From: Polyangia bacterium
Lineage (GTDB): Bacteria; Myxococcota_A; Polyangia; Nannocystales; Nannocystaceae
Reading direction: 5' to 3'
Assembly (NCBI GenBank): GCA_030429545.1
Contig: JAUIFF010000001.1
Span: 211,599-275,598 of the forward strand
Length of the DNA stretch: 64,000 nucleotides
Shown here piece by piece: positions 17,441 through 59,730 of this stretch. The notes under the pieces are model-generated. The model made no database searches, was not told the DNA's origin, and saw only the letters and a program-made list of their open reading frames with translations. Made by a program: the position numbers and the translations under genes. How positions within the stretch are numbered: the stretch's first letter is position 1; each line of letters begins with the position of its first letter.

Positions 17441-17722
17441 GTTGTCGTCGTCGCCTGGCAAACTTGCGTGCTGCAACGACGGTTTGATAGGGTCGTGTTG
17501 CTTCGCACCAAAGTGTATAGGCATCTAGTATGAAAGCGCGTTGGCTTGGCCCCGTCCTACTCGCCGAACACCGGAATCAGCTGTCGTCGTCGCTCGGCAA
17601 ACTTGCGCGCTGCAACGGCGGTAAAACACGGTCGTGCTGCTTCGCGCCAAAGTGAAGGCATCTAGTATGAAGGCGCGTTGGCTTGGCCCCGGCCTACTCG
17701 CCGAACACCCGAATCAGCTCGA
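17441..17722. repeat. Tandem duplication of a ~140-bp unit in the intergenic region upstream of the cysteine-rich-repeat lipoprotein gene
   Basis: Two ~85%-identical copies (tcgtcgtcgc..ggcaaacttgcg.gctgcaacg...catctagtatgaa.gcgcgttggcttggcccc...). Each carries a short ORF starting MKARWLGP. Confidence 0.7.
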
Positions 17723-31950: not shown

Positions 31951-33948
31951 ATGAAAACCCCTCAATTGCCCTTCGAGTTTTCGGCTTTCAAATTTTCGGC
32001 TTGCAAGTTTTTACCCACTGCACTGCTCGCGGTTTGTGTCGGGTGCGGCACGCCAACCACGTCGACCGGTAGCGAAACCGATTCCGATAGCGAGACCACC
32101 ACCGGTGACATGACCGAGACCGATGGCGAGACTGGGAGCGACAGCGATACCGGGCTGCCCGAGCCGTCCGAGCTCGACGGTTTCAACCGCTTTGTCCTGC
32201 GGGTCGACGACACGCCCCCGCCCCCGCTGACATTGGTGATGGACCACCAGGACGCCATCGACTTTTTTGGTGCCCAGGCCAAGGACCTCAAGCTCGTCGA
32301 TATCGACCCCACGCCGATGCTAGAAAATGCCCTGTTGGCCATCCAGGGTGCCTGTGGCGACAAGTGGACGCTCGACAACAAAAACCCAAATCACAACTGT
32401 CAGGTTACCGATTTGGGCAAGACGTTTGGTGCCAACTGGCAACACACACCTGAGTACTCGATGGTGCGCTTGCTGTCGATGACGCCGTCCAATGCCGATA
32501 TGCGGGGGACGGCGTTTGAAAAACTCGAAGACGTGATGAACTCCGACCTGATCGTCGAGGACTTTGCCTGGGCGCTCACCCAGATCCTCGAGATCGAGCG
32601 GACCGACCCGCTGCTGCCAATGGGAGCACTGGTGGCCGCGGTCAAAGACACGCTGTTGCAGCACCCCGCTGTCAACGAAGACGGGACGCTTGGGGTCACC
32701 CTCGATGATGCCCTAAAAGACATGCGCCCGTTGGCGGCCAAGTTCGGTCCGGTCGAAGATCACCCGGGGATTTTGTTGCCCGACGACGTCGACAACCCCA
32801 ATGGATTTGAGACCAAAAGCGATGCTATCGACCACCAAAAATTCCAGATGAAGGTCGTCGCCGGCAGTAACCTGCGGTTTGTCGACGGCGTCGACTTGTC
32901 CGGTGGCGGCGGCGATATGTTTTTGCTGCGCGACGATGCCGAGAACGTCTTAGAGCTCAAGTTCACCGGGGCCCACGAGGCCAACCTCGAGATTTCTGGG
33001 ATCAACGACCCGCCGACCATGGATATGCGGATGCGGATCAACGAGTTTATCGGCGACGCCGAACCGTGTCTCGATCCGGTCGAGGGCTGCCAAACCAACC
33101 AACCGAGCGAAGTCTACGAAGGCGCACCCGAGACCAACGTGTGGCGGTTGCCGCTGTGGTCGATGGAACGTTTGGTCGGGCAGTCGGGCTACCGCGCGTA
33201 CAAAGACGATCCCGAGGATTTCTCCAAGGATATCTCCAAGGACATCTGCCTGTTTATGGGCCAAAACAACTGCTACATCCGCCTCAAGTTGGGTGCCGAT
33301 GGTGCGCCCGAGGGGTGGATGAAGATGGAGCTCGACAACCTCTTCAACGAGGAGGAGTTTCCCGAGCCGCAGTTCTTCTGGGAGATGTTTGTCGACATCG
33401 CGGAAATCTCATTTCACGACGTCGACCCCGACACCCCGGGCCAGGAAGTCGAAGAGGGGGCGACCCCGACGTTTGCCCTCACCAAACTCAACATCGGGCT
33501 CACAGCCGACGACCTGATCGCCCAGATCCGGCAGTCACTCGAAGACCAAGAGGACGTGATGAGTGACCTGATTTTGGGTCGCTACTGGAAAAACAACCAC
33601 GCCCTCGACTTCTATTACCGGCGGGCCGACGACGGCAACCTCTACCTGTTTTTCGCCAACAACGAGGACCTGCGCCCCGACCCGCAAAACCCCAACGCCC
33701 CGCTAGAGCCCGCCTACCAAAACCCGGGCTTCTTCTCGTGTGTCGAGGTCAACGAGGGGTGCAAAGAGTCTCGCCTCAACATTTCTGGGGTCAGCGATAC
33801 GACCCACGAAAAACTCGCACTCAAGCGTGGCTGGAACAATCTGTATATGCAAGATGATCTCAACGGCATCTACGAGGTTCGCATCTATGTGCCGGAAAAC
33901 CGCGATGCCACCAAAATCTGGGCCTACGTTCGTTCGGCCGGCGCCTAA
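31951..33948 (+). CDS. Uncharacterised lipoprotein, paralog 1 of a tandem three-gene family
   Basis: Lipobox LLAVCVGCG and acidic Thr/Asp linker. Shares FFWEMFVDIAE, DFYYRR, YQNPGFF and HEKLALKRGWNNLYMQDD blocks with the next two genes. Confidence 0.7.
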   Translation: MKTPQLPFEFSAFKFSACKFLPTALLAVCVGCGTPTTSTGSETDSDSETTTGDMTETDGETGSDSDTGLPEPSELDGFNRFVLRVDDTPPPPLTLVMDHQDAIDFFGAQAKDLKLVDIDPTPMLENALLAIQGACGDKWTLDNKNPNHNCQVTDLGKTFGANWQHTPEYSMVRLLSMTPSNADMRGTAFEKLEDVMNSDLIVEDFAWALTQILEIERTDPLLPMGALVAAVKDTLLQHPAVNEDGTLGVTLDDALKDMRPLAAKFGPVEDHPGILLPDDVDNPNGFETKSDAIDHQKFQMKVVAGSNLRFVDGVDLSGGGGDMFLLRDDAENVLELKFTGAHEANLEISGINDPPTMDMRMRINEFIGDAEPCLDPVEGCQTNQPSEVYEGAPETNVWRLPLWSMERLVGQSGYRAYKDDPEDFSKDISKDICLFMGQNNCYIRLKLGADGAPEGWMKMELDNLFNEEEFPEPQFFWEMFVDIAEISFHDVDPDTPGQEVEEGATPTFALTKLNIGLTADDLIAQIRQSLEDQEDVMSDLILGRYWKNNHALDFYYRRADDGNLYLFFANNEDLRPDPQNPNAPLEPAYQNPGFFSCVEVNEGCKESRLNISGVSDTTHEKLALKRGWNNLYMQDDLNGIYEVRIYVPENRDATKIWAYVRSAGA

Positions 33949-33967
33949 GTTTCGGAGCAACACATCC

Positions 33968-35764
33968 ATGACAAATCGATTTGGCAAACTCCGCCCCCTC
34001 GGTCTCGCACTCAGCTGTGCTGCCCTCGGCCTGTGCTTGAGTTCATGTGTTCAAGAGGTCACCCTCGAAGAAAAACCCGATCCCACCGAAGTGGCGGTTG
34101 GCGAAGTCCGCACGGTCGAGATGCGCCACTGGCGGTTCGACGTCAAAAAATTCGAGATGACACTCGACCTAGAGGCGCTCAAGGGCATGCCCGAAAAGGT
34201 CCTGCGCGAGACCTGGATGGTCGACCTCGACGTTCGCCCGCTGATCATCAACTCGCTCGACAAGTTGCTCAACATGAATCCGGAGGAGGTCGATGGCCTG
34301 CCGGATGCCGAGTACAACATGTACCACCTGCTGACGATGACGGCCGATTCGGCCGATCTACGTGGGACCAGCCTGGAGGCGCTGCTCGAGATCGGCGAAG
34401 GCGTGGGCCTGGCCCCAAGCCGGGTACTCGCCGACTTGGTGGAAGTTGATGAGGACGAGCCGATTATTCCGCTCGAGATGATTGCCGATGCGGTGATCGA
34501 AAACCTCATTCAAACCCATCCGAGTGCCCAGTTTCGACGTGGCCCGGTGACCGATGAGCACCCCGACGGGCTCTACCCGGTGACGCCTGGAACCTTGCCC
34601 GTGAGCATGTGGGACGTGGTGACCGACTTTGCCGAGCTACCGATTCAGTTTGGCCCGGCAAATGTGGCGACCGAATACGGCTACCACCCGGGGTTCATTG
34701 CAGATACATCGGGTCTCAAGGCCACCACCGACGACTTCCAGATGGCGGTCCAGGTGGACCTCAACGCGTTTTCGTTTGAGGCCCTCGACCTGTCGACGAC
34801 CTCGATCGGCGCGGTCAACAGTACCGCCAGCCAGATCCGCGATGTCTTTGACTTCAACAACCCCGACTGGCTCAAGCTCGAAGGTCTCAAACAGGACCTG
34901 GTGATCGACGAGCTGACGATGTCGATTTTTGAGAGCCCAACATTTATTTCGGGGGGCACCTCAAAAGAGCCCGCACCACTTGGTAACTCGGCTGTTTGGG
35001 AACGGGCTCCATGGGAGTTTGAGCGACTGTTGGCCGATGTTGCAGTGCTGCGGGCCAGCGGCGTCTCCGAGCACTGTTCGGTGTACCAACCCGAGGGCAC
35101 CCTCGAAGAGCCATTTGATGCCGTCCAAGCCTGTTTTGGTGCCGATGCCTGGGTTTCAATTGCGGTCGATCAAAAGGTTGAACTCGACCAGCCGCCACCA
35201 CCCCCATCTTACTTTTGGGACATGTTGTTAGAAATCGCGCAATCGCTACTCCACAATGGTGGAATCGCCGAAGGAGCGGGGAGCGTGGCCCTGACCTTGC
35301 GGGATATCCCGACGGGCGTAGACACGGAGGAATTGGTCAACGAAATCAAGGGTAACATCATGACAAATCCCGAGGCGATGGCGGATTTTGCCGCCCTCCT
35401 CAACGACAGTCATATCGGCGACCCTGACTTCTACTACTATGTCCCACGGGTCGAGAACTCGGATGACATTAAGGGTGACTACCTCTACTTCATTACCCCG
35501 CGGGACCTCCGTACCGACGATAACGGTTTTGCGGTGCGACCCTACGGTTATCAAAACCCGGGCTTTTTCTCCGATCGCGCGCTCTTGCAAAAGGTTTCGA
35601 GCAAGGACCTCAATGTCGATGGCGACGTCGTTCACGAGAAGGTCAAAATCTCACCCGGAGATGTCTTGTACATGCAAGATGATGCGGCGCGCGTGTTCAA
35701 GCTCTCGGTCAACGAAAAACCGAGCAAGTACAAAATCTCGATCGACATCGAGCGCGTCGAATAG
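33968..35764 (+). CDS. Uncharacterised lipoprotein, paralog 2
   Basis: Lipobox LCLSSC. Blocks PPPPPSYFWDMLLEIAQ, DPDFYYY, YQNPGFF, HEKVKISPGDVLYMQDD. Confidence 0.7.
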   Translation: MTNRFGKLRPLGLALSCAALGLCLSSCVQEVTLEEKPDPTEVAVGEVRTVEMRHWRFDVKKFEMTLDLEALKGMPEKVLRETWMVDLDVRPLIINSLDKLLNMNPEEVDGLPDAEYNMYHLLTMTADSADLRGTSLEALLEIGEGVGLAPSRVLADLVEVDEDEPIIPLEMIADAVIENLIQTHPSAQFRRGPVTDEHPDGLYPVTPGTLPVSMWDVVTDFAELPIQFGPANVATEYGYHPGFIADTSGLKATTDDFQMAVQVDLNAFSFEALDLSTTSIGAVNSTASQIRDVFDFNNPDWLKLEGLKQDLVIDELTMSIFESPTFISGGTSKEPAPLGNSAVWERAPWEFERLLADVAVLRASGVSEHCSVYQPEGTLEEPFDAVQACFGADAWVSIAVDQKVELDQPPPPPSYFWDMLLEIAQSLLHNGGIAEGAGSVALTLRDIPTGVDTEELVNEIKGNIMTNPEAMADFAALLNDSHIGDPDFYYYVPRVENSDDIKGDYLYFITPRDLRTDDNGFAVRPYGYQNPGFFSDRALLQKVSSKDLNVDGDVVHEKVKISPGDVLYMQDDAARVFKLSVNEKPSKYKISIDIERVE

Positions 35765-35781
35765 ACAGGAGTTTACCTAAC

Positions 35782-37596
35782 ATGACCGCCCCCCGCAGTT
35801 ACTGGCCTGGTGTTCGCGCGGTAGCTGCCGCTTGTTTGGTTGCTGCTACAAGTTCATCTTGTATCGTCAAAGAAGTCACCTACGAGCCGCCGCCAGAGCA
35901 GGCCGAGATGGCGCCGGGGGAGACCCGCAGTGTCGTGCTGCTGTACAGCCGGTTCGATGTCGAAGACTTTGAACAGGTCATGACCATCGACGACCTCAGC
36001 CGGCTTCCGCTGACGACGCTCGAGAAGGTCTGGCTCCTCGACTACGACCCGTCGCTGCTGATGAATGCAGTGCTCGACGACCTCAAAAACCTGTCGCCGT
36101 CGGAGGCCGACGAACTGTCGGTGCCGGCCCAAAACATGCGCAAGCTGTTGAAGATGACCCCGGACACCGCCGACCTCACGGGGACCAACTTGGAGGAGGC
36201 CATCGCCCTCGCGCAGGCGGTCAACATTCCGCCCGGGCGGGTGCTCGCCGACCTGTTGGCGAAGGGCGTGACCGAAGAAGTCCTAACCTCCGATGTGGCC
36301 ACACAGGTGATTCGCCAGTCGCTAATCGCCAGTCACCCCAACGGCCAAACCCGCCGTGGGGCCGTGACTGCAGACCATCCCGACGGGATCTACGACGTGA
36401 CCCCAGGGACGATTCCGGTGACGCTCGCCGATGTCGTGACCGAGTTTCGAGCCCTGCCCGAACGCTTTGGGCCAATGCCGCTCGACCCCGAAGACCCCAA
36501 CAGCCTCGTTCATCCCGGGTTTATCACCGACGCCAGCGGGATTCCGTGGGAGACGACGATGACGGTCAAGGCCAACATCAATGCGTTGCCCTACGAGGGC
36601 GTTGACCCGACCTATTCGCGGATGGAGTACGTCAACAGCGTGCCCTCGCAGATCGATACGATGTTCGACTTCAGCGACCCCGAGTGGATGAAGGTCGAAG
36701 GCCTAGGCGGCACCATCGTGATCGATACGATCACCATGGGGATCATCGAAAACGACAGCTTCATTCCCGGTGGAATTTCGCAAGATCCCGTAGGGCAGGG
36801 TGACTCGCCAGTGTGGGAGCTGCCACCATGGGAGTTCGAACAAATGATCGCCGAGATGGCGAAAGTCAAGACCGACGACATCCCGGCCCATTGCGACGAA
36901 TACAAGTTTGGTACCGGGACCGTGGCGTTTCGTGCCTGCATCAGCCAAAGCGCAGAGGATGAGCCCGCGCCCGAGGTGCCGTGGGGATGGACCGAGCTCA
37001 GGTCGTTTGGCGATATCGGCGACCCGCCACCACCGGCCTATTTGTGGGACGTGTTGCTCGAGGTCGTGCAAGTCCGGCTGCACGACGGTGGTTTGGCCGA
37101 GGGCCAAGCTGACGTTGAGTTCACATTAAAAAACGTCGAGATCGATGTCGACGAGGCCGAAGAAAAGAAGCTGGTCGACGAGATCAAAGCCAACTTCCAA
37201 GAAGACCCAGGAGCATTTGTCGAGGTCGCCAAAACCCTAGTCGACAGCGCCACCGGAGATCCGGATTTTTACTACTACCGGCCCGACCTCGATAACTCCG
37301 TCGACATCCAGGGGGACTACCTCTACTTCGTCGAGCCAGCCGATCTGCGAGTCGACGACGAGGGAGAGCTCGTGCGCCCCTACGCCTACGAAAAGCCCGG
37401 GTTTTTCCGCGACGAAGGTCTCAACGACAAGGTCTCCTCAACCATGGAGATCGATGGCGACACCACCCGCGAGAAAGTTAAGATTCAGCCGGGTGATGTG
37501 TTGTTCATACAAGATGATCGCGGCGTCCGATTCCGGATCAATGTTGGCGAGAAGCCGAGTAAGTTTAGAGTTGCACTAGACATCACTCGCCTTTAA
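35782..37596 (+). CDS. Uncharacterised lipoprotein, paralog 3
   Basis: Lipobox ATSSSC. Blocks PPPPAYLWDVLLEVVQ, DPDFYYY, EKPGFF, REKVKIQPGDVLFIQDD. Closely collinear with paralog 2. Confidence 0.7.
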   Translation: MTAPRSYWPGVRAVAAACLVAATSSSCIVKEVTYEPPPEQAEMAPGETRSVVLLYSRFDVEDFEQVMTIDDLSRLPLTTLEKVWLLDYDPSLLMNAVLDDLKNLSPSEADELSVPAQNMRKLLKMTPDTADLTGTNLEEAIALAQAVNIPPGRVLADLLAKGVTEEVLTSDVATQVIRQSLIASHPNGQTRRGAVTADHPDGIYDVTPGTIPVTLADVVTEFRALPERFGPMPLDPEDPNSLVHPGFITDASGIPWETTMTVKANINALPYEGVDPTYSRMEYVNSVPSQIDTMFDFSDPEWMKVEGLGGTIVIDTITMGIIENDSFIPGGISQDPVGQGDSPVWELPPWEFEQMIAEMAKVKTDDIPAHCDEYKFGTGTVAFRACISQSAEDEPAPEVPWGWTELRSFGDIGDPPPPAYLWDVLLEVVQVRLHDGGLAEGQADVEFTLKNVEIDVDEAEEKKLVDEIKANFQEDPGAFVEVAKTLVDSATGDPDFYYYRPDLDNSVDIQGDYLYFVEPADLRVDDEGELVRPYAYEKPGFFRDEGLNDKVSSTMEIDGDTTREKVKIQPGDVLFIQDDRGVRFRINVGEKPSKFRVALDITRL

Positions 37597-37604
37597 CAGC
37601 CTTC

Positions 37605-38110
37605 GGGGGGCGCGCGGGCCTTTTTGGCCGTGAGAGCGGTCGGGAGAGGCTTGCGGTAGGTCGACTACAGCGTCGCCTCGCACGACTCGCTTCACGGCCA
37701 AAAATTCTCCGCGAATCGTGGTGTGGGGCAGGGTTTTGGTTCTGGGAAGCGCGCGGGCGTTTTGGGGAGCGCGGGCAGAGAGACGGTCGGGAGAGGCTTG
37801 CGGTAGGTCGACTACAGCGTCGCCTCGCACGACTCGCTTCACGGCCAAAAATTCTCCGCGACTCGTGGTGTGGGGCAGGGTTTTGGTTCTGGGAAGCGCG
37901 CGGGCGTTTTGGGGAGCGCGGGGGGCAGAGAGAGCGGTCGGGAGAGGCTTGCGGTAGGTCGACTACCGCGTCGCCTCGTGCGACTCGCTTCACGGCCAAA
38001 AATTCTCCGCGACTCGTGGTGTGGGGCGGGGTTTTGGTTCTGGGAAGCGCGCGGGCGTTTTGGCTGTGAGAGCGGTCGGGAGAGGAGGCCGGCTTGAGTC
38101 GTCCGGGACT
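37605..38110. repeat. Tandem array, ~3.5 copies of a ~135-bp intergenic repeat (family also present at 38900-39575)
   Basis: Unit ...gagcggtcgggagaggcttgcggtaggtcgactacagcgtcgcctcgcacgactcgcttcacggccaaaaattctccgcgaatcgtggtgtggggcagggttttggttctgggaagcgcgcgggcgttttgg. Contains an imperfect hairpin CACGACTCGC-(20 nt)-GCGAATCGTG. Confidence 0.8.
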
Positions 38111-38191
38111 CTTCGGTAAGAACCCAGGCTGTGGGTGCCACCGTCGCTATCGGCGGCATCCGTGCATCGCCGGACCAAGGAGTTCACCCCC

Positions 38192-38773
38192 ATGCAGAAA
38201 CTGGTCTACTACGTCGCAACTACGGCGGACGGCTATATCGCTGGACCGAATGGCCAGATCGACTTCTTTCCCTTCGACGGCGACCACCTCCGCGGTCTGT
38301 ACCAGGACTATCCCGAGACATTTCCTGTGCACGCCCGCGAGGCGCTCGGCTTCGTCTTCGACAACCCCAAGCGCTTCCGCACCGTCGTGATGGGGCGCCG
38401 CACCTACCAGCCTGCACTAGATATCGGGGTGACTGACCCGTACGCTCCTCTGGAGACGATTGTGTTCTCGAGAACCCTGCCCGCAGGTGTGAACGGAGCA
38501 GTCAAGATCACCGACGAGGATCCGATATGCCTCGTCCGGGCGCTCAAGCAGCGCAACGACGGAGCAATCTGGCTGTGCGGTGGTGCGCAACTGGCGGGCG
38601 AGCTTGCGGGGGAGATCGACGAGCTGATCTTGAAGGTCAATCCCGTTGTCGTAGGGGACGGAGTCCCCGCGATTACCGGAGCATTCCGTCCGCGAGCGCT
38701 TCGTTTGAAAAGGCAACGAGTGTTCGACAGTGGGGTGATTGTTCTCTACTACGACATCGTGCGGGATGAGTAG
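38192..38773 (+). CDS. Dihydrofolate-reductase-family protein (RibD C-terminal domain-like)
   Basis: 193 aa; LVYYVATTADGYIAGPNG...VMGRRTY...LWLCGGAQLAGELA, typical of the bacterial DHFR-like/RibD_C family. Confidence 0.7.
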   Translation: MQKLVYYVATTADGYIAGPNGQIDFFPFDGDHLRGLYQDYPETFPVHAREALGFVFDNPKRFRTVVMGRRTYQPALDIGVTDPYAPLETIVFSRTLPAGVNGAVKITDEDPICLVRALKQRNDGAIWLCGGAQLAGELAGEIDELILKVNPVVVGDGVPAITGAFRPRALRLKRQRVFDSGVIVLYYDIVRDE

Positions 38774-38899
38774 ATGGGTTCCCGCAAAATGGGGTGCGCA
38801 AGAGTCGGATCGTCGGCCCAGACAAGGGGGCGGCCTTCGAGTTGGTAGAAAGCATCGGCAGCTGACTTGTGGCCGATCGCCCTGAGCTGCCGAGATGCA

Positions 38900-39575
38900 T
38901 TCTCGGTAGAGTTAACTTCGCTCTCAAATCAGTTTCAGCAGCGAGTTCGGTCGGGAGAGGCTCGCACAAGGTCGACGACAGCTTCGCCACAACCGGCTTC
39001 ACGCGAGTCGTAGAGGCTTGGTTTTGGTTGGGCGCGGGGGCAGTCGGTCGGGAGAGGCTCGACGACAGCTTCGCCTCACAACCAGCTTCACGCGAGTCGT
39101 AGTGTGAGGCTTGGTCTTGGTTGTGGTGGCAGCGAGTTCGGTCGGGGGAGGCTCGACGACAGCTTCGCCTGTCACGACTCGCTTCACGGCCAAAACATGT
39201 TCGTGAATCGTGGTGTGAGGCTTGGTCTTCGTTCTGGCGCCGTGAGGGACCTGTTTGGTCGTGAGAGTCGGGAGGGACTGGTGGCAGTGAGAGCGGTCGG
39301 TAGGCCGACGATCGCTTCGCCTGTCACGCGACTCGCTTCACGGCCGAAAATCTTCGTGGATCGTGGGGCGCGGGGCCGCCAGTGTGTCGGTGGTCGACTA
39401 TACGACTCGCGTTACGGCCGGAAATCCGCGAAACGCGGTGTGGGGTTGGTCTGGGCACTGGCGGGTGTACGAGTTCGCCTGGGCAGGCGGGTGTGGGGTC
39501 AGAGCGGTCGCGGGAGAGGCTCGCAGTCGGTTGACGACGACTTCGCCTCTCACGACCGAGAAGTCGCTACGACAC
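38900..39575. repeat. Second block of the same intergenic repeat family, ~5 degenerate copies
   Basis: Recurring ...ggtcgggagaggctcgacgacagcttcgcct..cacgactcgcttcacggccaaaa..tt.gtg.atcgtggtgtg.gg.ttggt.t.g... units, related to the 37605-38110 block. Together they flank the DHFR-like gene. Confidence 0.75.
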
Positions 39576-39765
39576 GACGTCCAAGGCTTCGGCTACTTGC
39601 CTCGACTGTGTCGTTGGCCTTGCAAGCTTCGGTGGCCGACTGTGGTTCACAGACCACGGTCTTCGCTTGTATATAAACGGGCCTGTTTTGCACAACAGGT
39701 GACAAACCGGCGGGTTGCGGCCTACACTGCCCGCTGCTGCGCCCGAGCCGAAAGCACCTTCAACT

Positions 39766-41262
39766 ATGCCGACTTCTCGCTCCCCGAATCTGCGCTCACG
39801 TTTTTTGCTCAGCACACTCGCCTGTGCCGGATTGTGTTTGACGCCCTCTGTTGTTCACGCGTCCGGCCTCGATGCCCCGGTGCTTGGTGGTGCGCAGTCG
39901 GGCCCGAACGCCCGTGACGCTGCCGGTGTGTTTTACAACCCCGGTCAGCTCGGGTTTATGAAGCGTGGCGAAGTCTATTTCGGCGGTGCGTTGTTGGTGG
40001 GTGACATTCGCTACACGCGTAATCGGACGGGGCGCTACCAGTACTCAGAGCTGCATAACTTCTCGCACAACGACGGCAGCCCGATTTCCGACGAGTACAT
40101 CGACGCCAGCAAGACCGGGCAGTCCGACGGGGTTAAGACCAATCCGTTTGGCGCGGTGCCGAGTATGTTTATCGCGGTGCCTGTCCTCAAGGATAGACTT
40201 GTGCTCGGTGGTGGTGTCTACGTGCCGAATGCGGCCATCCTCAACCTTCCGTCCGACGGTGCCCAGCGGTGGCAGGTGCAGCAGGCGATGATCCTGATCA
40301 CCAACGTCACGGCCTCGCTCGGTGTGCGGATCAACGACTACATCTCGGTCGGTGGTGGTATCTCCTACGTGCTGGGGTTTGCCGAACTTTCCAAGGTTCA
40401 GGATTTTGGTGCTGTTCCGTTACTTGCAGATGCACTTTCTGAGCCGCCGATCAGCCAGGCCAACGACCTCGGCGACGATGCTCCCCCCGAGGTGCGCGAG
40501 CTCGACTCGCTGTCACGACCGCTTTCACTCAAGCGTGCCTTCTCCCATGGCGTGACGTTTAACGTGGGTATTGCCGCCCGTCCGACCAAAAAGTTTGGGC
40601 TCAACCTGACCTACCAACACAGCTCAGCGATGAAGTTTAAAGGCGACTTCTCGCTGCTGATGGACGACCCGTTTTTTACCGAGAAGCTCGCTGGCGTCGA
40701 GCTACCCGAGGGCAATATCTCGTTTAAACCGCTGATTCAGGGCGACGCGGTTTTGCGGTTTAAAACCCCCAAACGGATCACCCTGGGGATGTCGTATGAC
40801 ATCAACAACAAGTACCGGATCGACGGTTTTGTTGCATATTCACTGTACCGCGAGCTCAAGGCGTTTGATGTCGAGGTCAGCTCGCCCGACCTAGCCCAGC
40901 CCGCCCTCGGCATTGGTGAGTCGACATCCCTGGCGCTGGTCCGCAACTGGAAAGACACCGTCTGGGTCGAGATGAGTGGCCGTTTCCGCCTCACCGATCG
41001 CCTGCTTGGTTCGGCGACACTCGGCTATCAGTCGCCAGCTTCGCCCGATAGCACCATCGACATGGCCTCACCCGACGGCCACCGTCCGCTCGGTGGTATG
41101 GGGCTTGCCTTCGACGTCAACGAGAAGTGGCGACTTCAGGGCGATGCTCGGTTTCAGGGGATCATCCCGCGGACCGTGACCGAGTCAGACTACGACTTGG
41201 GTAATGGTACGTACAAGTTGTTTATCGCGACCTTTGGTCTGCACGCCCAGGCCCGGTTCTAG
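39766..41262 (+). CDS. Outer-membrane transport protein, OMPP1/FadL/TodX family
   Basis: Signal peptide; N-terminal SGLDAPVLGGAQSGPNARDAAGVFYNPGQLG block typical of FadL-like proteins; beta-barrel-like alternating pattern; C-terminal aromatic residue (...AQARF). Confidence 0.7.
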   Translation: MPTSRSPNLRSRFLLSTLACAGLCLTPSVVHASGLDAPVLGGAQSGPNARDAAGVFYNPGQLGFMKRGEVYFGGALLVGDIRYTRNRTGRYQYSELHNFSHNDGSPISDEYIDASKTGQSDGVKTNPFGAVPSMFIAVPVLKDRLVLGGGVYVPNAAILNLPSDGAQRWQVQQAMILITNVTASLGVRINDYISVGGGISYVLGFAELSKVQDFGAVPLLADALSEPPISQANDLGDDAPPEVRELDSLSRPLSLKRAFSHGVTFNVGIAARPTKKFGLNLTYQHSSAMKFKGDFSLLMDDPFFTEKLAGVELPEGNISFKPLIQGDAVLRFKTPKRITLGMSYDINNKYRIDGFVAYSLYRELKAFDVEVSSPDLAQPALGIGESTSLALVRNWKDTVWVEMSGRFRLTDRLLGSATLGYQSPASPDSTIDMASPDGHRPLGGMGLAFDVNEKWRLQGDARFQGIIPRTVTESDYDLGNGTYKLFIATFGLHAQARF

Positions 41263-41280: not shown

Positions 41281-41682
41281 ATGGAGCACCGCGGATCATG
41301 TTTGTGCGGACAGGTGACGTACACCGTCACCGGTGCATTTGAGCACTTTATGTTTTGCCACTGCACGCGCTGCCAAAAGGGCAGCGGCAGTGTCCATGGG
41401 GCGAACCTGTTTGCCCCGGGTGCACACCTCGAGTGGACTGGTGAGGGGGAGGTGCGCACCTATCAGGTTCCCAACACGCGCCACTCCCGGAGCTTTTGCG
41501 TGCGCTGTGGCTCCGCGGTGCCGACGTTGGCGATGGCTGGCAAGCTTGTGGTCGTGCCCGCGGGTTCACTCGACACTCGCCTCGATAAAGCCCCAGATGC
41601 CCACATTTTTTGCGGTGACCAGGCGAGCTGGGAGGGGTTGCTTACCGACTTGCCGCGGTTTGATACCCTGCCAAAGATGTAG
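41281..41682 (+). CDS. GFA-family protein (glutathione-dependent formaldehyde-activating enzyme / CENP-V-like Zn-binding domain)
   Basis: 133 aa; GSCLCGQVTY...CHCTRCQK...CVRCGS cysteine pattern of the GFA domain. Confidence 0.8.
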   Translation: MEHRGSCLCGQVTYTVTGAFEHFMFCHCTRCQKGSGSVHGANLFAPGAHLEWTGEGEVRTYQVPNTRHSRSFCVRCGSAVPTLAMAGKLVVVPAGSLDTRLDKAPDAHIFCGDQASWEGLLTDLPRFDTLPKM

Positions 41683-41699
41683 CTACATTAACCTGTGCG

Positions 41700-42095
41700 G
41701 GGTGGCGAGCAGCCCGTGGGTTTAACCCACGCAGTTGCCGAGCCGGACGATGTTGGTCCTTGCGAGTTTTTTCGACGAAACCGACAAAAACCTGTCCAGA
41801 GCGGCTAGCAGCTGTGGTTTTTGTCGTGGCACCCACGCAGTTGCCGAGCCGATGTTGGTCCAAAAATGTAGCTACATTTAACTCGTCCGGAGCAGCTGGC
41901 AGTTTGGGGTTTTTGTCGTGGCACCCCCACGCAGTTGCCGAGCCGGCTGATGTTGGTCCTAGCGAGTTTTGCCAACGAACCCGACAAAAACCGCAGTCCA
42001 GAGTAGCTAGTAAGCCTGTAGATTTTATTGTTGCACCCGAGCTAGTGGTCCTGGCGAGTTTTGCCGACTAACCCGACAAAAACCGCAGCTTGAGG
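41700..42095. repeat. Intergenic tandem repeat, ~4 degenerate copies of a ~95-bp unit with palindromic TGTAGCTACA motifs
   Basis: Units share cacgcagttgccgagccgg.tgatgttggtcct.gcgagtttt.c.a.gaa.ccgacaaaaacc... The palindrome atgtagctacatt sits at ~41683 and ~41868. Confidence 0.75.
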
Positions 42096-48072: not shown

Positions 48073-51000
48073 GTGAAGCTTGTTCGTCGCGCCACCCTGA
48101 GCCACAAAGTCGGATCGACCGAAAAGGTCTACGAAGTCGAACTGTGTCGGGTCGCCAGCGGCAAGTTTCTCGTCAACTTCCGGTACGGGCACAAGGGCAG
48201 TGTCCTCAAGGAAGGGACCAAAACCCATCGCTCTGTCGCAGAAGCCAAGGCTCGCTCCATTTTTGCTCGACTCGTCGACGACAAAAAACGCAAGGGCTAT
48301 GTCGAGGCTGGGCAACCCCAACGGGTGGCGAAGAAGTCGAACAAAGGGTCGGGGTCGGCATTGCCGGCTTCGCCCGGGGATCGGATCAAGGGGATCATCG
48401 CCCGGGTCGAGAACCAAAATACGACGTCGTGGGCACTGTCCCGCGCGGTTTGGCGGGCTGGCGAGCTCAAGCTCAAAGAGGCCGTGCCCCACATGGTCAA
48501 GCTCGTTGGCTCGGGCTCATGGATGCTCCAGTACTGCTTAGCCTGGGCACTTGGTCGATGCGGTGACGCGACAACCTTTGAAGCCTTGCTGCGCACCCAG
48601 GGCAACGAGGTCGCGCTACTCAAGTGCGATAGTTGCCACAAGAAAAATCGGATTCCGTGGTCACGGTTTCCCACCTACGCTGCCAGCTGTGGCCATTGTG
48701 GGCAAAAGCTTCGCCGTGTCGATCGGCCGTTGAGCCTGGCGGCCGACTCGATTCAGGTGTTGTTTCCGGCGGCCTCCAAACATCCCGCAGTTGCGAGGAT
48801 GGCACTCGAAGCCGTGCGCGCCTGGGGTGGCGAGGCGGCCGAAAGTGTAGCTACATCGGTTTACGATTCGCTCCCGGGAGTCTTTCAACAGGCGCTCGAC
48901 AAAGAAGACGAAGACGCGTTTGCAGCTGCCCTCGAAGCCGAGTTGGCAGCACCCGGGCGTGATACCTGGACCATTTTAGAGCGGATCTACATGCTCGAGG
49001 ACCCGTGCATTCGCCCGGGCCTCCTCAAAGCACTGCGTACCCTCGACCTCAAACCCGGGGCGTTTCGGGCGATGCGACACATCTTTAAGCTCGCCGAAGG
49101 TCGGGGCGACGGCGAGGTGTTTGGTCTGCTCGCCTACCGGTTTGAGCGCGCGCGCGGGAACTTCCGCAACTCCCGTGTCTATACAAGTGTCCATGGGCGG
49201 TGGACCCGTGCCAGCACCGAGTTGGCCAAGGACGATTCGCGCCTGTGCTTTTCCAACACCACCCGCGAGTACATGCGCCGTCGCACCTGGCGGACGGTCC
49301 AGCGCTTGGGTGAGCTCGGCGAGGCCGAACAGTACGTGCGGATGGCGGTTGGTGTGTTGCTACCATTTACCGACACCGACGGCGGCAACGTCCGAAGCCG
49401 TCGCAGATACAACTACCGCACGCGGGGTTACACGACCGACTACTGGGATAAATTTTGCCAGTACGAGGCGTTTAACCGAGTCCTGTTTGACAACAGCCAT
49501 CGCTACGAGCGGCAGCATCGGGCCAAGTTGTGGCGTTGCACCGGCGGGTTTACGCCCGGTGATGCACTCCCGCAAAACCGCGAAGAGGCGTTTGCCGAGC
49601 TTTGGGACAAGGTCCCGGTCGGGCTGCTGCACTTGCTAGCCGAGAGCCGTTGCGAGCAGGTGCACGACTTTGCTTCGCGGGCGTTGCGGGCCAACAAAAA
49701 ATTCTGCGAGGGTCTCGATGTCGAAACCCTCACCATGTTGTTGGGTCGCGGGTACAAGCGCACGGTCCGGCTCGCGTTTGAGTTGGCAGTCGAGCGTTAC
49801 GACCCGCGCAACCCCGACATCGACTTGGTCGCAGCCATGGTCAACTGTTCGGTTGAGGAGGCACGGCTGCAAGCCCAGCGCTGGATCCATCAGGACCGTC
49901 AGCGGTTTTTGCAAGACCGTGGCCTCGTCGCCGACATGATCCTCTCGCAGCAACAGGACACCCGCAAGTTCACCGAGCGGTTGTTGGCGTCGGCCTCGCT
50001 CGATCCACTCGCCGCCGAGGCCTTGATCGCCACCGTGATTTCACGGCTGTTGGTCCTGTCGCCCGGCTTCAACGAGAACACGGCATTGGCCAAGGATGCC
50101 GGCGAGTTGTTGCTCAAGGTGTTTGCTCGGCCGCTGCGCTCGATCGGTTTGGGTGTTGTCGAGGACCTCGCCAAGCACAAGCTGGTGGCGCTGCAGCAGT
50201 TTGCCGCGCAAATCCTCGTGGCCCACGACACGCGCCCCCGCGACCTCCCCGAGGACTTGCTGGCGGCGGTCATGAACTCGATTCACCCAGACGTCCGCGG
50301 AATTGGCATCCGCCTGTTCGGTGAGTTGCCCGACCGCGAGTTGCTCGACCGCAAGGCCCTGATCCTCGCATTGGTGACCTCGAGGCAAGAAGATGTCCGT
50401 GAGGCCATCCGCCCGGTCATTCAACGGTTGGTCGGGACCTACCGCGAGTTTGCCGATGAGCTCTCGTCGCTTTTGCTCGCCAGCCTGCTGCGCAAGGAGT
50501 CCCACAAGGGGCTGCACAACTACCTCCTGCGGCTGTTTAAAGACGAGCTGTTGCCCTCGCTTCGGCACGTTCGTAAGCCGTTGGTGTTGCGACTTTTAAG
50601 GGCCCCATCGTCGGCTGCCCAGGAACTCGGTGGCTTGCTGCTCGCCCGCAACATCGACCCAGCCGAACTCACTGTGCGCGAGGTTGTACGGTTGGCCAGC
50701 CACGAGATTCGTTCGGTCCGCGAGGCCGCGTGGAAGTTTTACACCGACAACCCCGAGCGGATCCGTGACGAAATCGAAGAGGGGATCCGCCTGCTCGACG
50801 CCACCTGGGACGACTCGCGTGCATTTGCATTTGAGTGGTTTGGCACTGTGCTCGACAAGCACGACTTCGACCCGGATATTCTCGTGTCGATTTGCGATAG
50901 CGTGCGCGAAGATGTCCAGCAGTTTGGGCGCCGGTTGGTCACCCGCTACTTTACCGAACAAGACGGTCACGAGTACCTGTTGCGACTGTCGGAGCATCCG

Positions 51001-51378
51001 TCGTCGGAGCTGCAGATTTTTGCCAGCAACTACCTCGAAGACCACGCCAGCGGCTCGCTCGAGCGCTTGCGTGAGCTCGAGCCGTACTTTTGTAGTGTGC
51101 TGTCTCGGGTCAACCGCGGACGTGTGGCCAAAGCCCGTGTATTTGCATTTTTAGCTGCCGAAGCGCGCAAGTCCGACGAGGCGGCGGCGATGATTTCCAA
51201 GCTACTCACCCGGCAGTCGCTGACCATGGCGATCGGCGATCGGGCCAACTGCATCACCGGGATGTTGGAGCTCCATCACGAGCATCCTGACTTTGACATC
51301 CCGCTGCGGGTGGTGGCGGTGGAGCAGCGCACGGGCAAGTTCAGCAACTCAGCAGGGGAGGGGCAGCGTGGAGTTTAA
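48073..51378 (+). CDS. Large WGR-domain protein with extended alpha-helical (HEAT/ARM-like) repeat region; candidate retron accessory protein
   Basis: 1101 aa; N-terminal WGR-like domain (KVYEVELCRVASGKFLVNFRYGHKGS) followed by ~950 aa of predominantly alpha-helical repeats. Probable GTG start. Confidence 0.7.
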   Translation: MKLVRRATLSHKVGSTEKVYEVELCRVASGKFLVNFRYGHKGSVLKEGTKTHRSVAEAKARSIFARLVDDKKRKGYVEAGQPQRVAKKSNKGSGSALPASPGDRIKGIIARVENQNTTSWALSRAVWRAGELKLKEAVPHMVKLVGSGSWMLQYCLAWALGRCGDATTFEALLRTQGNEVALLKCDSCHKKNRIPWSRFPTYAASCGHCGQKLRRVDRPLSLAADSIQVLFPAASKHPAVARMALEAVRAWGGEAAESVATSVYDSLPGVFQQALDKEDEDAFAAALEAELAAPGRDTWTILERIYMLEDPCIRPGLLKALRTLDLKPGAFRAMRHIFKLAEGRGDGEVFGLLAYRFERARGNFRNSRVYTSVHGRWTRASTELAKDDSRLCFSNTTREYMRRRTWRTVQRLGELGEAEQYVRMAVGVLLPFTDTDGGNVRSRRRYNYRTRGYTTDYWDKFCQYEAFNRVLFDNSHRYERQHRAKLWRCTGGFTPGDALPQNREEAFAELWDKVPVGLLHLLAESRCEQVHDFASRALRANKKFCEGLDVETLTMLLGRGYKRTVRLAFELAVERYDPRNPDIDLVAAMVNCSVEEARLQAQRWIHQDRQRFLQDRGLVADMILSQQQDTRKFTERLLASASLDPLAAEALIATVISRLLVLSPGFNENTALAKDAGELLLKVFARPLRSIGLGVVEDLAKHKLVALQQFAAQILVAHDTRPRDLPEDLLAAVMNSIHPDVRGIGIRLFGELPDRELLDRKALILALVTSRQEDVREAIRPVIQRLVGTYREFADELSSLLLASLLRKESHKGLHNYLLRLFKDELLPSLRHVRKPLVLRLLRAPSSAAQELGGLLLARNIDPAELTVREVVRLASHEIRSVREAAWKFYTDNPERIRDEIEEGIRLLDATWDDSRAFAFEWFGTVLDKHDFDPDILVSICDSVREDVQQFGRRLVTRYFTEQDGHEYLLRLSEHPSSELQIFASNYLEDHASGSLERLRELEPYFCSVLSRVNRGRVAKARVFAFLAAEARKSDEAAAMISKLLTRQSLTMAIGDRANCITGMLELHHEHPDFDIPLRVVAVEQRTGKFSNSAGEGQRGV

Positions 51379-52999
51379 CTACCGCTACGCCGGTTCGACC
51401 GCGGTCGACTCGGGCGCCCGTTCGACGGACATGTCGTTTGCCCCCGATACCCATCGGGAGCCGACCTACTTCACGGGAGAGTTGCATAAGCAACTAGAGT
51501 TCCGAGAGGCGATTTCTGCCCTCCACGACGTTGTGGTTTCGGACCTGCGGTTCAAGCCCAAGGACAAAACGGCCTACAAAGAGTGGCTCGCCACCCAGGA
51601 GCAGGTCGACTGGCAACAGGTCGCCCAAAACCGCAGCCAGGTGCAGGCCGAAATCACGAGCACGCAACGCGAACTCAACGACCTGCAAACCCGCTTTCGC
51701 AACCGGATGTCGAGCTTTTACAAGGCCCGGCAAAAGTACTTCGACTACCTCTACAAAAAAGACCGCGACGCCTGGTTTGTTTTAGACCCGGTGATCACCG
51801 TCCACCCAGACCAGGTCTTTTTTGAGTGCTTTAGCCAGGACGAGTCGAGCTACGGCCGCCTAGGCTGCAACTACGAGGTGTTCAAGAACATCGGCGAGTT
51901 CGCCTGCGGGACCACCAACATCGACTACAGCGACGCGCTGTACAACGAGTTCCAAAAGATCCGTCGCTACAAAACCACCACGTTTCAGATCGACCCCGGT
52001 GGGTTTGATGTCGAAACCACCGGCGAAGACGGCTACCGCGAATGCAAGATCGACCTGCCCGACAGTTGGGTCCGCGGGTTTTTGCAAGTCAGCTCGGCCA
52101 TGACGCTGCCGGCAGTCCGCTTCGATTTGGAGCCGATGGACATTCACAACTTGTGCTTTGTCCTGCGTCGCAACCGCGAGCGTCACGGGCCACGCAGCAT
52201 GCGTTACAAGCTCAACCCCGGGCATCCCGTGCGGGTGGTGTTTGAGCCGTGGAATATCGAGGTTGTCTGCCCGCGTTCGATCTACAAGGGCGACTCCCAG
52301 CAGGAAATCCGCGTGTGGGGCCGTCGGCGGATCCACATCTTGGAGCGCCTGATCCCGGTCGCAAAAAAGTTTACAGTACATCTTTTAGGCCGTGGACTGC
52401 CCTCGTTTTACGTCGCCGATCTAGGCGATATGAACTTCACCCTCGGGCTTTCCGGATGGACCGCCAACGACTGGTCCAAGGCCGGCAACTTCGACCTGAT
52501 GGCCCCTCGGGCTAAGGTCGACACCCTCACCAAACGCCGTGTGTTTGACGCTCTCAAGCAAAACTGGCGCGAGACCCCGCAGAGCTTGGCCAGTCGGCTC
52601 AACCTCGACCGCAAACTCGTGTTGGGTGCGCTCGGTGCGTATACCCAGGCAGGACGTGCGATCTACGACCTCGACCAAGAAGTCTATCGCGTCCGCGAAC
52701 TCAGCCGCGACCCGCTGCCGATGGACAAACTGCGGTTTGCCAACGAACGCGAGCAACAGGCCAACCAGATCTGCGATCGTGGGCAGGTCAACGTCACGAG
52801 TGCCGACACGCGCATGAACGGAACCGTGACGGTGCGCGGACGCGTGTTGCGGTTCACCCCCGAACTTGTGATCGATCGCGACGAGCGGATGATCGACGCC
52901 CGCTGTAGTTGCAACTTTTTCTTTCAAAACAAGCTGCACAAGGGTCCGTGTGAACATATACTGGCCCTACGCATCGCCCACCGAAAGTCGCAAAAGTAG
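51368..52999 (+). CDS. SWIM zinc-finger protein; candidate retron accessory protein
   Basis: C-terminal CSCNFFFQNKLHKGPCEH matches the SWIM CxCx(n)CxH signature. The putative GTG start overlaps the upstream stop (GTGGAGTTTAA); an alternative ATG lies at ~51431. Confidence 0.65.
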   Translation: MEFNYRYAGSTAVDSGARSTDMSFAPDTHREPTYFTGELHKQLEFREAISALHDVVVSDLRFKPKDKTAYKEWLATQEQVDWQQVAQNRSQVQAEITSTQRELNDLQTRFRNRMSSFYKARQKYFDYLYKKDRDAWFVLDPVITVHPDQVFFECFSQDESSYGRLGCNYEVFKNIGEFACGTTNIDYSDALYNEFQKIRRYKTTTFQIDPGGFDVETTGEDGYRECKIDLPDSWVRGFLQVSSAMTLPAVRFDLEPMDIHNLCFVLRRNRERHGPRSMRYKLNPGHPVRVVFEPWNIEVVCPRSIYKGDSQQEIRVWGRRRIHILERLIPVAKKFTVHLLGRGLPSFYVADLGDMNFTLGLSGWTANDWSKAGNFDLMAPRAKVDTLTKRRVFDALKQNWRETPQSLASRLNLDRKLVLGALGAYTQAGRAIYDLDQEVYRVRELSRDPLPMDKLRFANEREQQANQICDRGQVNVTSADTRMNGTVTVRGRVLRFTPELVIDRDERMIDARCSCNFFFQNKLHKGPCEHILALRIAHRKSQK

Positions 53000-53047
53000 G
53001 GCGGCTTCAGGATTTACACCGGAGGAAGATCCAAGCATTTCAAGTTT

Positions 53048-53286
53048 TGTCATGACAGTGGCGGGGTAGGACCAGCCTTGCAGGAACGGGCGGCGGATCG
53101 CCGTCCATGCGATTTGCTCAATCATGCATCACTGGTTCGCTCTTTACTGTGCGGTACATCGGGGTAGCGGGACCATTCCAGTTCGGCTCCCGAGAAGCGA
53201 ATGTGTCCCGCTACCCCAAGTACCGCTGGAGTTGAGCGACCCAGTACTGAGAGCCTTCGAAGGCCCGACTCGCCACTGTCGTGACA
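53048..53286 (+). ncRNA. Candidate retron non-coding RNA (msr-msd) between the SWIM gene and the RT gene
   Basis: Bounded by a 14-bp inverted repeat (TGTCATGACAGTGG at ~53048-53061; CCACTGTCGTGACA at ~53273-53286, one G-U pair) followed by a G-run. It contains a small GC stem (GGGCGGC-ggatc-GCCGTCC) and a long hairpin GCGGTAC-atc-GGGGTAGCGGGAC...GTCCCGCTACCCC-aa-GTACCGC (~53151-53227). Confidence 0.5.
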
Positions 53287-53329
53287 CCTTTTTCCCGCTC
53301 GCATCCTGCGAGCACCTGTCCGGTTAGCC

Positions 53330-58771: not shown

Positions 58772-58774
58772 ATA

Positions 58775-59730
58775 TTTCCTGCACGAAGAGTGAGGCAGGC
58801 TTCGATGGCGATTGGTCGCGCGAACATATTCCTGCACGAGGAGTGAGGCAGGCTTCGATTGAGATGGGTCGAGCGAGCATACTTTCAGCACGAAGAGTGA
58901 GGCAGGCAGGCTTCGATGGAACAACACGGGTCCTGCCGCGTACCCCACTTCGAGCCTCCGGGAGCACGGCAGTTGTGACGCATGTCTATGCAAGTGGTTT
59001 GGCGGGGCGCCGGCGATAGGGTGGAGCAGGACGTCGGTGCGGCCTCCGTTCGAAGTCGGGGACCCCCCGCGTCACCCGTTCGTCGGAGTTCGACGGTAGC
59101 CCGCATCTCGGGCAACCGTGAAACGGTGATGGCACCGCCTTGTTGACCCGCGTCAGGTTTCGGGTAGGCGCCGCTTGATGACCACGTTACTCGTTCGTTG
59201 GACCTTGGTGATGGCACTAACTGAGCGATGGAGACTGGTCGAGCGAGCATATTTTCAGCACGAAGAGTGAGGCAGGCAGGCTTCGATGGAACACCACGGG
59301 TCCTGCCGCGTACCCCACTTCGACCCTCCGGGAGCACGGCAGTTGTGACGCATGTCTATGCAAGTGGTTTGGCGGGCGTCGGTGAAACGGTGATGGCACC
59401 GCCTTGTTGACCCGCGTCAGGTTTCGGGTAGGCACCGCTTGATGACCACGTTACTCGTTCGTTGGACCTTGGTGATGGCACTGACTGAGCGATGGAGACT
59501 GGTCGAGCGAGCATATTTTCAGCACGAAGAGTGAGGCAGGCTTCGATGGAACACCACGGGTCCTGCCGCGTACCCCACTTCGAGCCTCCGGGAGCACGGC
59601 AGTTGTGACGCATGTCTATGCAAGTGGTTTGGCGGGGCGCCGGCGATAGGGCGGAGCAGGACGTCGGTGCGGCCTCCGGTCGAAGTCGGGGACCCCCCGC
59701 GTCACCCGTTCGTCGGACTTCGGATCCATT
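58775..59730. repeat. Compound tandem-repeat array (~950 bp) built from three sub-units; not CRISPR
   Basis: Unit A (~140 bp, ...ggtcgagcgagcatattttcagcacgaagagtgaggcagg...ggcagttgtgacgcatgtctatgcaagtggtttggcggg) occurs 3 times plus two truncated copies. Units B (gcgccggcgataggg...cgttcgtcgga) and C (gtgaaacggtgatggcaccgcc...gagcgatggagact) occur twice each, in order a'a'ABCACAB. Confidence 0.8.

Follow-up and report, generated by a model that had tools for sequence, protein, structure and literature searches.

A structured intergenic element amplified in tandem around a RibD_C gene in a Nannocystaceae genome

REPINs (doublets of repetitive extragenic palindromic, REP, sequences that form hairpins) are long imperfect hairpins of two inverted arms, lie outside genes just 3' of them, show compensatory changes between their arms and occur in ordered tandem clusters of near-identical copies, flanks included, of up to ~700 bp (Bertels and Rainey, 2011, PMC3116915). 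The element described here shares these features. It lies in a 64,000-nt stretch of DNA from a Polyangia bacterium (Nannocystaceae), called the window below, to which all coordinates refer unless another contig is named. Within this window, a 2.2-kb spacer between the stop codon of a 604-aa gene and a FadL/Toluene_X outer-membrane transporter gene contains two arrays of a repeat unit and, between them, a single small gene of the RibD_C family. With moderate confidence, we interpret the unit as a Nannocystaceae lineage-specific structured intergenic element of the REP/REPIN/MITE-like kind (MITE, miniature inverted-repeat transposable element), which has been locally amplified in tandem.

Unlike REPINs, the element has an asymmetric conserved tail followed by a G-rich tract, and no REP-associated tyrosine transposase (RAYT) was present among the open reading frames (ORFs) of the window that were scanned. 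In REP sequences a conserved GTAG-type tetranucleotide adjoins each palindrome; the element departs from this arrangement, since its GTAG is placed at the apex of the hairpin and not beside a short REP palindrome. The REPIN/RAYT systems in the literature consulted come from Pseudomonas, Enterobacteria and a few other groups, whereas the host of the element is a myxobacterium.

MITE-like repeats such as Correia/NEMIS, ERIC, RUP and BOX are ~100-150 nt long and, as the element does, carry terminal inverted repeats that fold into a long hairpin; they are also intergenic, co-transcribed with neighbouring genes and lineage-specific, and can be likened to it in these respects. Unlike in MITEs, no target-site duplication could be defined for the element, although arms resembling terminal inverted repeats are present. 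We know of no parent insertion sequence for it, and tandem amplification is, to our knowledge, atypical of MITEs.

The attC sites of integrons and of CALINs (clusters of attC sites lacking integron-integrases) resemble the element in their imperfect hairpin, conserved ends, variable middle and extrahelical bases, and here too a small gene that is missing from a close relative lies alongside. However, the element has neither RYYYAAC/GTTRRRY core sites nor an alternation of ORFs with attC sites, and no integrase was found among the scanned ORFs. With intrinsic terminators and 3' stabilising stem-loops it shares a GC-rich stem that closes a transcription unit, placed 15-25 nt beyond a stop codon, and FadL, the gene that follows, has a candidate promoter of its own. 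Unlike terminators, the stem is preceded by a T-run and followed by an A-run, on both strands, and its 84 nt are far longer than usual.

The long hairpin and its conservation

The hairpin of the element is complete only once in the window, in the first unit (U1) of the array 5' of the RibD_C gene, since an insertion of ~12 nt destroys the basal 5' arm of the second and third units (U2 and U3). It begins 24 nt 3' of the stop codon of the 604-aa gene.

37621-37704, both strands fold: complete long hairpin of ~84 nt inside U1, an inverted repeat with 30-nt arms and a 24-nt gap
U1 hairpin as RNA, + strand: -52.3 kcal/mol, z score -7.7
U1 hairpin as RNA, - strand: -49.5 kcal/mol, z score -8.3
U1 hairpin as DNA, + strand: -34 kcal/mol, z score -8.6

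The arm TTTTTGGCCGTGAGAGCGGTCGGGAGAGGC (37621-37650) pairs with GCCTCGCACGACTCGCTTCACGGCCAAAAA (37675-37704) around an apex of the form GTAG-GTCGA-CTAC, over a base composed of a T-run and GGCCGTGA, with one G and one T bulged. Downstream, the flank reads AAAAATTCTCC on the + strand and AAAAAGGCCC on the - strand, with no U-tract on either. The element as a whole, which is ~125-150 nt long, has three parts: the nearly perfect hairpin of ~84 nt, whose base (TTTTGGCCG / CGGCCAAAA) and apex (GTAG-N4-5-CTACAGC) are conserved and whose middle stem varies but stays complementary; an asymmetric conserved tail (TTCYCCGCGAATCGTGG); and the G-rich tract. The motif TTTTGGCCG occurs six further times in the window, all of them in unrelated and mostly coding contexts.

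For comparison we used two sister assemblies from the Nannocystaceae, L024 (GCA_964621785.1) and L025 (GCA_049614025.1, a 1467-nt contig), and an outgroup, L026. The FadL protein has matches of 89% and 87% identity in two metagenome-assembled genomes of this family and is 60% identical to that of L026. L024 is syntenic with the window from 25.3 to 52.7 kb at ~78-82% nucleotide identity, and the order of the 604-aa gene and FadL is the same in L024 and L026. In L024, FadL follows the 604-aa gene after 488 bp, the assembled part of the syntenic locus has neither a RibD_C nor a GFA gene, and one clear orthologous element begins 15 nt past the stop codon of the 604-aa gene, with E = 2e-19 in nhmmer and 127 bits in the covariance model. 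Behind it come a short direct repeat and then a 100-N assembly gap (L024 9719-9818); in this genome, too, the repeat array has defeated the assembly. In L025 the element is placed 3' of the stop codon of FadL, a different site from that in the window and L024, and scores 103 bits with the covariance model; its 5' half is tandemly duplicated, its 5' flank differs, and the contig terminates within it. In L026 the three paralogues (the 604-aa gene being the third) and FadL are 86 bp apart, and this spacer contains no hairpin and no RibD_C gene.

At both independent sites the element starts 15-25 nt beyond the stop codon that ends the last of several co-directional genes and has the same orientation as the genes, and a local tandem duplication of it is seen in all three species (window, L024 and L025). 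The GTAG...CTAC apex mini-stem is conserved in the three species, and the hairpin is far more stable than shuffled sequences in each of them, on both strands (z scores -7.7 to -10.9). Between the window and L024 the extrahelical bases of the hairpin are conserved as well, and GCGCGCGGG is found on both sides of the element, where it is indistinguishable from the boundary between tandem units. The comparison of these genomes shows the element to be older than the divergence of this species and L024, its closest relative.

Covariation was assessed in an alignment of seven units (A2) over a helix of 28 pairs, with 500 shuffles and a slid 3' partner as controls. Nine pairs have changed on both sides, compared with 3.4 +/- 1.4 in the shuffles, none of which (0 of 500) reached nine, and with 0-3 for the slid partner. 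In L024, AGCG:CGCT is replaced by ACCG:CGGT and GAGGC:GCCTC by GGGGC:GCCCC, and the internal loop GGA/GCA has become the paired TGA:TCA. The middle stem of L025 is wholly replaced by GTTTGAGAAGG:CCTTCTCAAAC, with base and apex sequences unchanged, and in a strain variant (contig L014) the 3' arm reads GCCTCTCCCGAC, the perfect complement of GTCGGGAGAGGC. The element is also better conserved than the 4-fold sites of the flanking genes:

Window versus L024: element identity 77%; 4-fold sites of flanking genes 50-58%
Window versus L025: element identity 66%; 4-fold sites of flanking genes 42%

The remainder of the spacer cannot be aligned between the window and L024. Judged from these alignments, the compensatory changes, together with conservation above the neutral rate, show that the pairing is maintained by selection. 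The modelled helix of the three complete elements has Watson-Crick pairs only, without any G-U pair, and because both strands fold equally well, the pairing data do not separate a role in RNA from one in DNA.

The original prediction had named another imperfect hairpin within the unit, with arms CACGACTCGC and GCGAATCGTG. Its sequence is present, but the structure is not significant (z score -0.9 in the window and 0.0 in the L024 orthologue), and no compensation across species was observed; CACGACTCGC, taken there for the 5' arm, is part of the 3' arm of the ~84-nt hairpin at 37621-37704. The same prediction had considered that a unit unique to this locus and with no conservation of structure would be a local duplication only, and the structure of the element proved to be conserved in L024 and L025.

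A second long hairpin of like geometry (26-nt arms with 24 nt between them) is located at 3312-3387, ~90 nt downstream of a minus-strand P450 gene. Its tail, TTCTGCGCGAGACG, resembles that of the element, the covariance model match is weak (15 bits, E = 0.12) and the fold has z scores of -3.1 to -3.6. This hairpin may represent a strongly diverged relative, or the likeness may be coincidental.

The two arrays and the RibD_C gene

Ten units, all on the + strand, make up the arrays, which we call U (5' of the RibD_C gene) and D (3' of it).

37622-37768, + strand: unit U1, with hairpin, conserved tail TTCTCCGCGAATCGTGG and G-rich tract; nhmmer E = 3e-50; covariance model 143.6 bits
37769-37919, + strand: unit U2, basal 5' arm broken by the ~12-nt insertion, inner hairpin only; covariance model 112 bits; alignments A1 and A2
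37920-38057, + strand: unit U3, 5' arm disrupted as in U2; covariance model 121 bits; a different variant in other strains
38058-38087, + strand: truncated unit U4, 5' arm only (TTTTGGCTGTGAGAGCGGTCGGGAGAGG), the first ~30 nt; unit homology ends here
38933-39116, + strand: units D1 and D2, 87-94 bp; period 94 by Tandem Repeats Finder (TRF); nhmmer E = 2e-10 and 1e-9; covariance model 30 and 38 bits
39117-39385, + strand: units D3 and D4, near full length; nhmmer E = 2e-20 and 4e-12; covariance model 94.7 and 69.6 bits
39386-39593, + strand: units D5 and D6, the most degenerate; nhmmer E = 6e-7 and 5e-7; covariance model 32 bits for D6

A tandem array of about 3.5 copies of a ~135-bp unit had been predicted 5' of the gene. 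TRF (37632-38063, period 147, 2.9 copies, 96% matches, score 795) and an analysis of the register of direct repeats bear out the array, with start-to-start spacings of 147 and 151 bp in place of ~135 and, the truncated fourth unit included (37622-38087), ~3.2 units in place of ~3.5. Its units are 96-99% identical to each other. The degenerate copies predicted on the other side were recovered with a profile of U1-U3 (nhmmer E from 2e-20 to 6e-7), but they number six and not about five; they extend from 38933 to 39593, are 87-154 bp long, and five of the six are also recovered by the covariance model. D1 and D2 are short variants that lack ~15 nt (GCCAAAAATTCTCC) and have an altered 3' arm, and D3 and D4 retain the 3' arm CACGACTCGCTTCACGGCCAAAA but have a shortened apex. 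A core 23-mer of the unit occurs five times, compared with 0.01 occurrences expected by chance.

ORFs run through the arrays on both strands, as had been noted before, when they were called spurious. Of two that we searched, the one of 138 aa (- strand) has no relatives among 5.8 G proteins, and a search of 1.84 G representatives with the one of 190 aa (+ strand) returned nothing but the ORF itself and a eukaryotic proteoglycan-like protein, matched through low-complexity sequence. Since neither has relatives and the period of 147/151 is not a constant multiple of three, the arrays appear to be non-coding and the ORFs that cross them are probably not genes. Two further signals were considered for the units and discarded. 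A G-quadruplex motif in the G-rich tail occurs in L025 and at the U1/U2 and U2/U3 junctions but is missing from L024, and is hence not conserved; a sigma-54 promoter, considered for the units and for the array at 41.7 kb, has the wrong spacing as judged by eye.

The segment that separates the two arrays contains the following features:

38088-38191, + strand: leader of the RibD_C gene, unique sequence with no match to the unit; AAGGAG ribosome-binding site 9 nt before the ATG
38192-38773, + strand: RibD_C or 'dihydrofolate reductase family' gene, 193 aa; Pfam PF01872, E = 1.7e-10, 41.5 bits against a cut-off of 24.1
38855-38893, + strand: stem-loop unrelated to the units, 9-bp stem TCGGCAGCT / AGCTGCCGA with a 21-nt loop, found by sequence inspection and also contained in a chance Rfam alignment

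The small gene had been predicted to be related to dihydrofolate reductase, in agreement with the names of its homologues: of 1527 at E <= 1e-20, many are annotated as 'dihydrofolate reductase family protein'. The TCGGCAGCT / AGCTGCCGA stem-loop lies ~80 nt 3' of its stop codon, within the unique segment 38774-38932. Unit homology ceases at 38087 and starts again at 38933, and a copy of the 5' arm motif CGGTCGGGAGAGG stands on either side of the gene, at 38073-38085 and at 38948-38960. Since neither L026 nor the assembled portion of the L024 spacer contains RibD_C, an insertion is the most parsimonious explanation, the gap in L024 being a loophole, and the gene probably represents a lineage-specific insertion of a ~845-bp segment into an existing array. 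Its two closest homologues elsewhere, at 71% and 69% identity, are found in unrelated contexts with no units alongside, which indicates that the gene does not travel with the repeats. The contig of the 71%-identical homologue (L012) starts, over positions 1-120, with a 15-nt tandem repeat (GAAGAAGGCGGGGAC-like) that is unrelated to the unit.

Short-read assemblies from the same species (Logan) give a view of the arrays in other strains. Each of the contigs is interrupted in the U array: L010 and L011 stop at window position 37661, and L001, L014 and L015 begin in the last U unit. L001 and L014 are ~99.6% identical to the window. Their last U unit differs at ~15 positions and by an 8-nt deletion and has D-like features, their RibD_C gene has a few differences only, and their D array has none. 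The concentration of strain differences in the last U unit suggests that the U array is a recent, homogenised amplification and that the D array is old. The occurrence of tandem duplications in all three species further suggests that the palindrome itself promotes slippage or unequal exchange.

In the course of events that we infer, the hairpin would form in single-stranded DNA, at the 3' end of the upstream transcript, or in both. There it could act as a 3' stem-loop, serving as an exonuclease barrier or as terminator-like punctuation before the promoter of FadL, or it may be merely tolerated. The arrays would have grown by slippage or unequal recombination between units; the D units would be the remnant of an older array, and a recent burst would have produced the 96-99% identical U units. 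The RibD_C gene would have recombined into the array, together with its own leader, in this lineage; if so, the arrays are not there 'for' the gene.

Nature of the element

Several observations weigh against a repeat family of the REP/REPIN/MITE-like kind. Across ~150 kb of DNA searched with nhmmer and the covariance model, among it the remaining ~62 kb of the window, 21 kb from L024 and 13 kb from L026, no further copy was found, a distribution unlike the classic REP/REPIN density of ~1 per 5-10 kb. Seeded exact patterns gave only chance matches in the GTDB representatives, JGI metagenomes and IMG/VR, with nhmmer similarity confined to the seed; the source genome is absent from the sets scanned, so that this negative says little about it. 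No RAYT, transposase, integrase or recombinase was encountered among the window ORFs scanned, and its asymmetric tail sets the element apart from symmetric REPINs. Only three independent complete elements underlie the covariation, and the slide control is tilted in favour of the tested structure, which was drawn from these same sequences. The evidence from L025 comes from a contig of just 1467 nt, and the 100-N gap of L024 could conceal further units or even a gene. Finally, as neither strand has a U-tract, a terminator role would have to be a non-canonical one. Membership in the REPINs is accordingly not claimed, since the element is asymmetric, no dispersal was seen and no genome-wide search for RAYTs was made. 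Of the REP/MITE-like family that the original prediction had offered as one possibility, what stands is a structured element kept in two sister species, in one of them at a non-orthologous site, and what is missing is any further copy in the DNA searched.

That the units are functional structured RNAs, either a small-RNA array, which the original prediction had also offered, or a cis-regulatory leader or 3' untranslated-region module for RibD_C or FadL, in which hairpin and tail are retained for a sequence-specific function of the RNA, appears unlikely to us. Stem covariation together with conservation of the apex and of a single-stranded tail is typical of functional RNAs, the orientation of the element matches that of the neighbouring genes at both independent sites, and it is conserved above the neutral rate. 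Yet there was no match to an Rfam family even at E <= 10, promoter-like or terminator-like signals per unit were not above the shuffled expectation, and the equal stability of both strands and the lack of G-U pairs give no sign of selection on an RNA strand. The basal stem is, moreover, lost in U2 and U3, and the conserved FadL promoter candidate lies 3' of the arrays, which places them outside the FadL leader. A neutral by-product, that is, a locus-specific tandem duplication of a spacer that happens to contain a palindrome and is neither a family nor functional, would agree with the absence of copies elsewhere in the ~150 kb searched, with the 96-99% identity of the U units and their variation between strains, and with the unrelated arrays at 900-1334, 17443-17719, 41700-42090 and 58772-59720 of the same window, from which the genome seems prone to spacer amplification. 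We consider it quite improbable as an account of the element, given its 66-77% identity across species against 42-58% at neutral sites, the nine compensated base pairs and its position after a different gene in L025; it may hold for the amplification itself.

The likeness to attC raises the question of whether the hairpins are DNA recombination sites, attC-like or used by another recombinase, with small genes (RibD_C, perhaps GFA) captured in a cassette array. Neither gene is present in the assembled part of the syntenic locus of L024, RibD_C is bracketed by the two copies of CGGTCGGGAGAGG, and conserved extrahelical bases (window and L024), conserved ends and a variable middle recall attC. 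We nevertheless give this explanation only a slim chance: no RYYYAAC...GTTRRRY pair occurs in 37500-39800 on either strand, the units are stacked (three and six) without ORFs between them, the window ORFs scanned include no integrase or recombinase, the GFA gene adjoins an unrelated repeat family, and the two closest homologues of RibD_C lack repeats of this kind in their surroundings. An integron-type attC/cassette array was rejected on these grounds (core sites, stacking, integrase). The earlier suggestion that the repeats are recombination substrates which captured the gene survives in so far as the absence of RibD_C from relatives fits its arrival in the array, and lacks support in that neither a recombinase among the scanned ORFs nor an attC-type site was found. 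Some REP and BIME elements (bacterial interspersed mosaic elements) of E. coli are known to contain bound sites, BIMEs binding IHF and gyrase. By analogy, the palindrome might be a binding or architectural site at the DNA level, for a nucleoid protein, a cruciform-binding protein or a topoisomerase, as its strand-symmetric structure of Watson-Crick pairs and its conserved apex and base sequences would allow; the asymmetric tail and the constant orientation relative to genes would be left unexplained, and we think this very unlikely. It is also highly improbable that the hairpin module is the recognition site of an undescribed Nannocystaceae mobilisation or recombination system which spreads and amplifies the element and captures small genes; the conserved base, the GTAG...CTAC apex, the extrahelical bases and the asymmetric tail could then all serve recognition. 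Such a system would amount to a gene-capture mechanism outside integrons or to a RAYT-independent analogue of REPINs in Myxococcota.

Rfam 15 gave no match at the gathering thresholds in the whole window and only chance-level matches at E <= 10 in 37400-39900, and no tRNA or tmRNA was found. A canonical intrinsic terminator was discarded, as no U-tract follows the stem and a terminator scan returned four against 2.7 +/- 2.0 in shuffled sequence. A literature search yielded nothing on such palindromic repeats in myxobacteria.

If the interpretation as a lineage-specific, locally amplified element is right, a palindromic repeat family maintained by selection is added to the Myxococcota. The spacer has grown from a gap of at most 86 bp in the outgroup to ~2.2 kb, now with a gene unseen in the relatives examined, and the locus is a concrete, small case of structured repeats that reshape operon boundaries, break short-read assemblies and make room for the insertion of a gene. 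The covariance model (R1) and the three-species alignment provide a probe with which the family can be counted in complete Nannocystaceae genomes. No new principle is involved unless a dedicated mobilising or capturing enzyme is found.

Neighbouring genes and other features of the window

The genes on both sides of the spacer and the promoter candidate of FadL are as follows:

35782-37596, + strand: 604-aa gene (from the ORF list), no Pfam family; third of three paralogues preceding FadL in Nannocystaceae
39699-39728, + strand: candidate sigma-70-like promoter of FadL, GTGACA-18-TACACT, from a promoter scan; 3' of the D array
39766-41262, + strand: FadL/Toluene_X outer-membrane transporter gene; Pfam PF03349, E = 6.5e-31

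The promoter candidate lies within a block conserved in L024, the blastn alignment with which picks up again at window position 39641. Directly 5' of FadL, a tandem set of three paralogues, each ~600-690 aa long and outside any Pfam family, is conserved in three Nannocystaceae lineages; together with the outer-membrane transporter these genes may form an uncharacterised operon.

Window 31951-37596: three tandem paralogues
L024 3885-9512: three tandem paralogues
L026 99-5914: three tandem paralogues

Directly 3' of FadL is a GFA-family gene (41281-41682), which the syntenic position in L024 lacks. Behind this gene comes an unrelated tandem family (~92-112 bp x 3.5) with inverted arms CGACAAAAACC / GGTTTTTGTCG, which runs into the 3' end of an Nramp gene (41281-42090 for gene and array together), so that the GFA gene and its array form a second case of a lineage-specific small gene beside a locus-specific array. 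Other locus-specific arrays, with units unrelated to the element, are found at 900-1334 (60/101 bp x 2-5), 17443-17719 (139 bp x 2) and 58772-59720 (53 bp x 2.5, with longer repeats, of a few hundred bp, in addition), and the source genome seems unusually rich in spacer repeats. At 16582-16852 a tandem repeat of 93-96 bp falls within coding sequence, in the gene for a DUF4215 protein (15670-17328, - strand).

A type XIII retron, 9-15 kb distant from the arrays, occupies 48073-54886, with WGR_XIII at 48073-51378, SWIM_XIII at 51293-52999 and RT_XIII at 53330-54886 (PADLOC E = 5e-190); at least WGR_XIII and SWIM_XIII are also present in L024. The arrays around RibD_C were rejected as the msr-msd non-coding RNA of this retron, as they are ~14 kb away behind unrelated genes on both strands and RT_XIII has a structured spacer of its own. 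This 340-nt spacer (52995-53335), which has no match in Rfam, is predicted to fold with a z score of -8.95, with long-range pairing of its flanks and a long internal hairpin, and probably encodes the msr-msd RNA.

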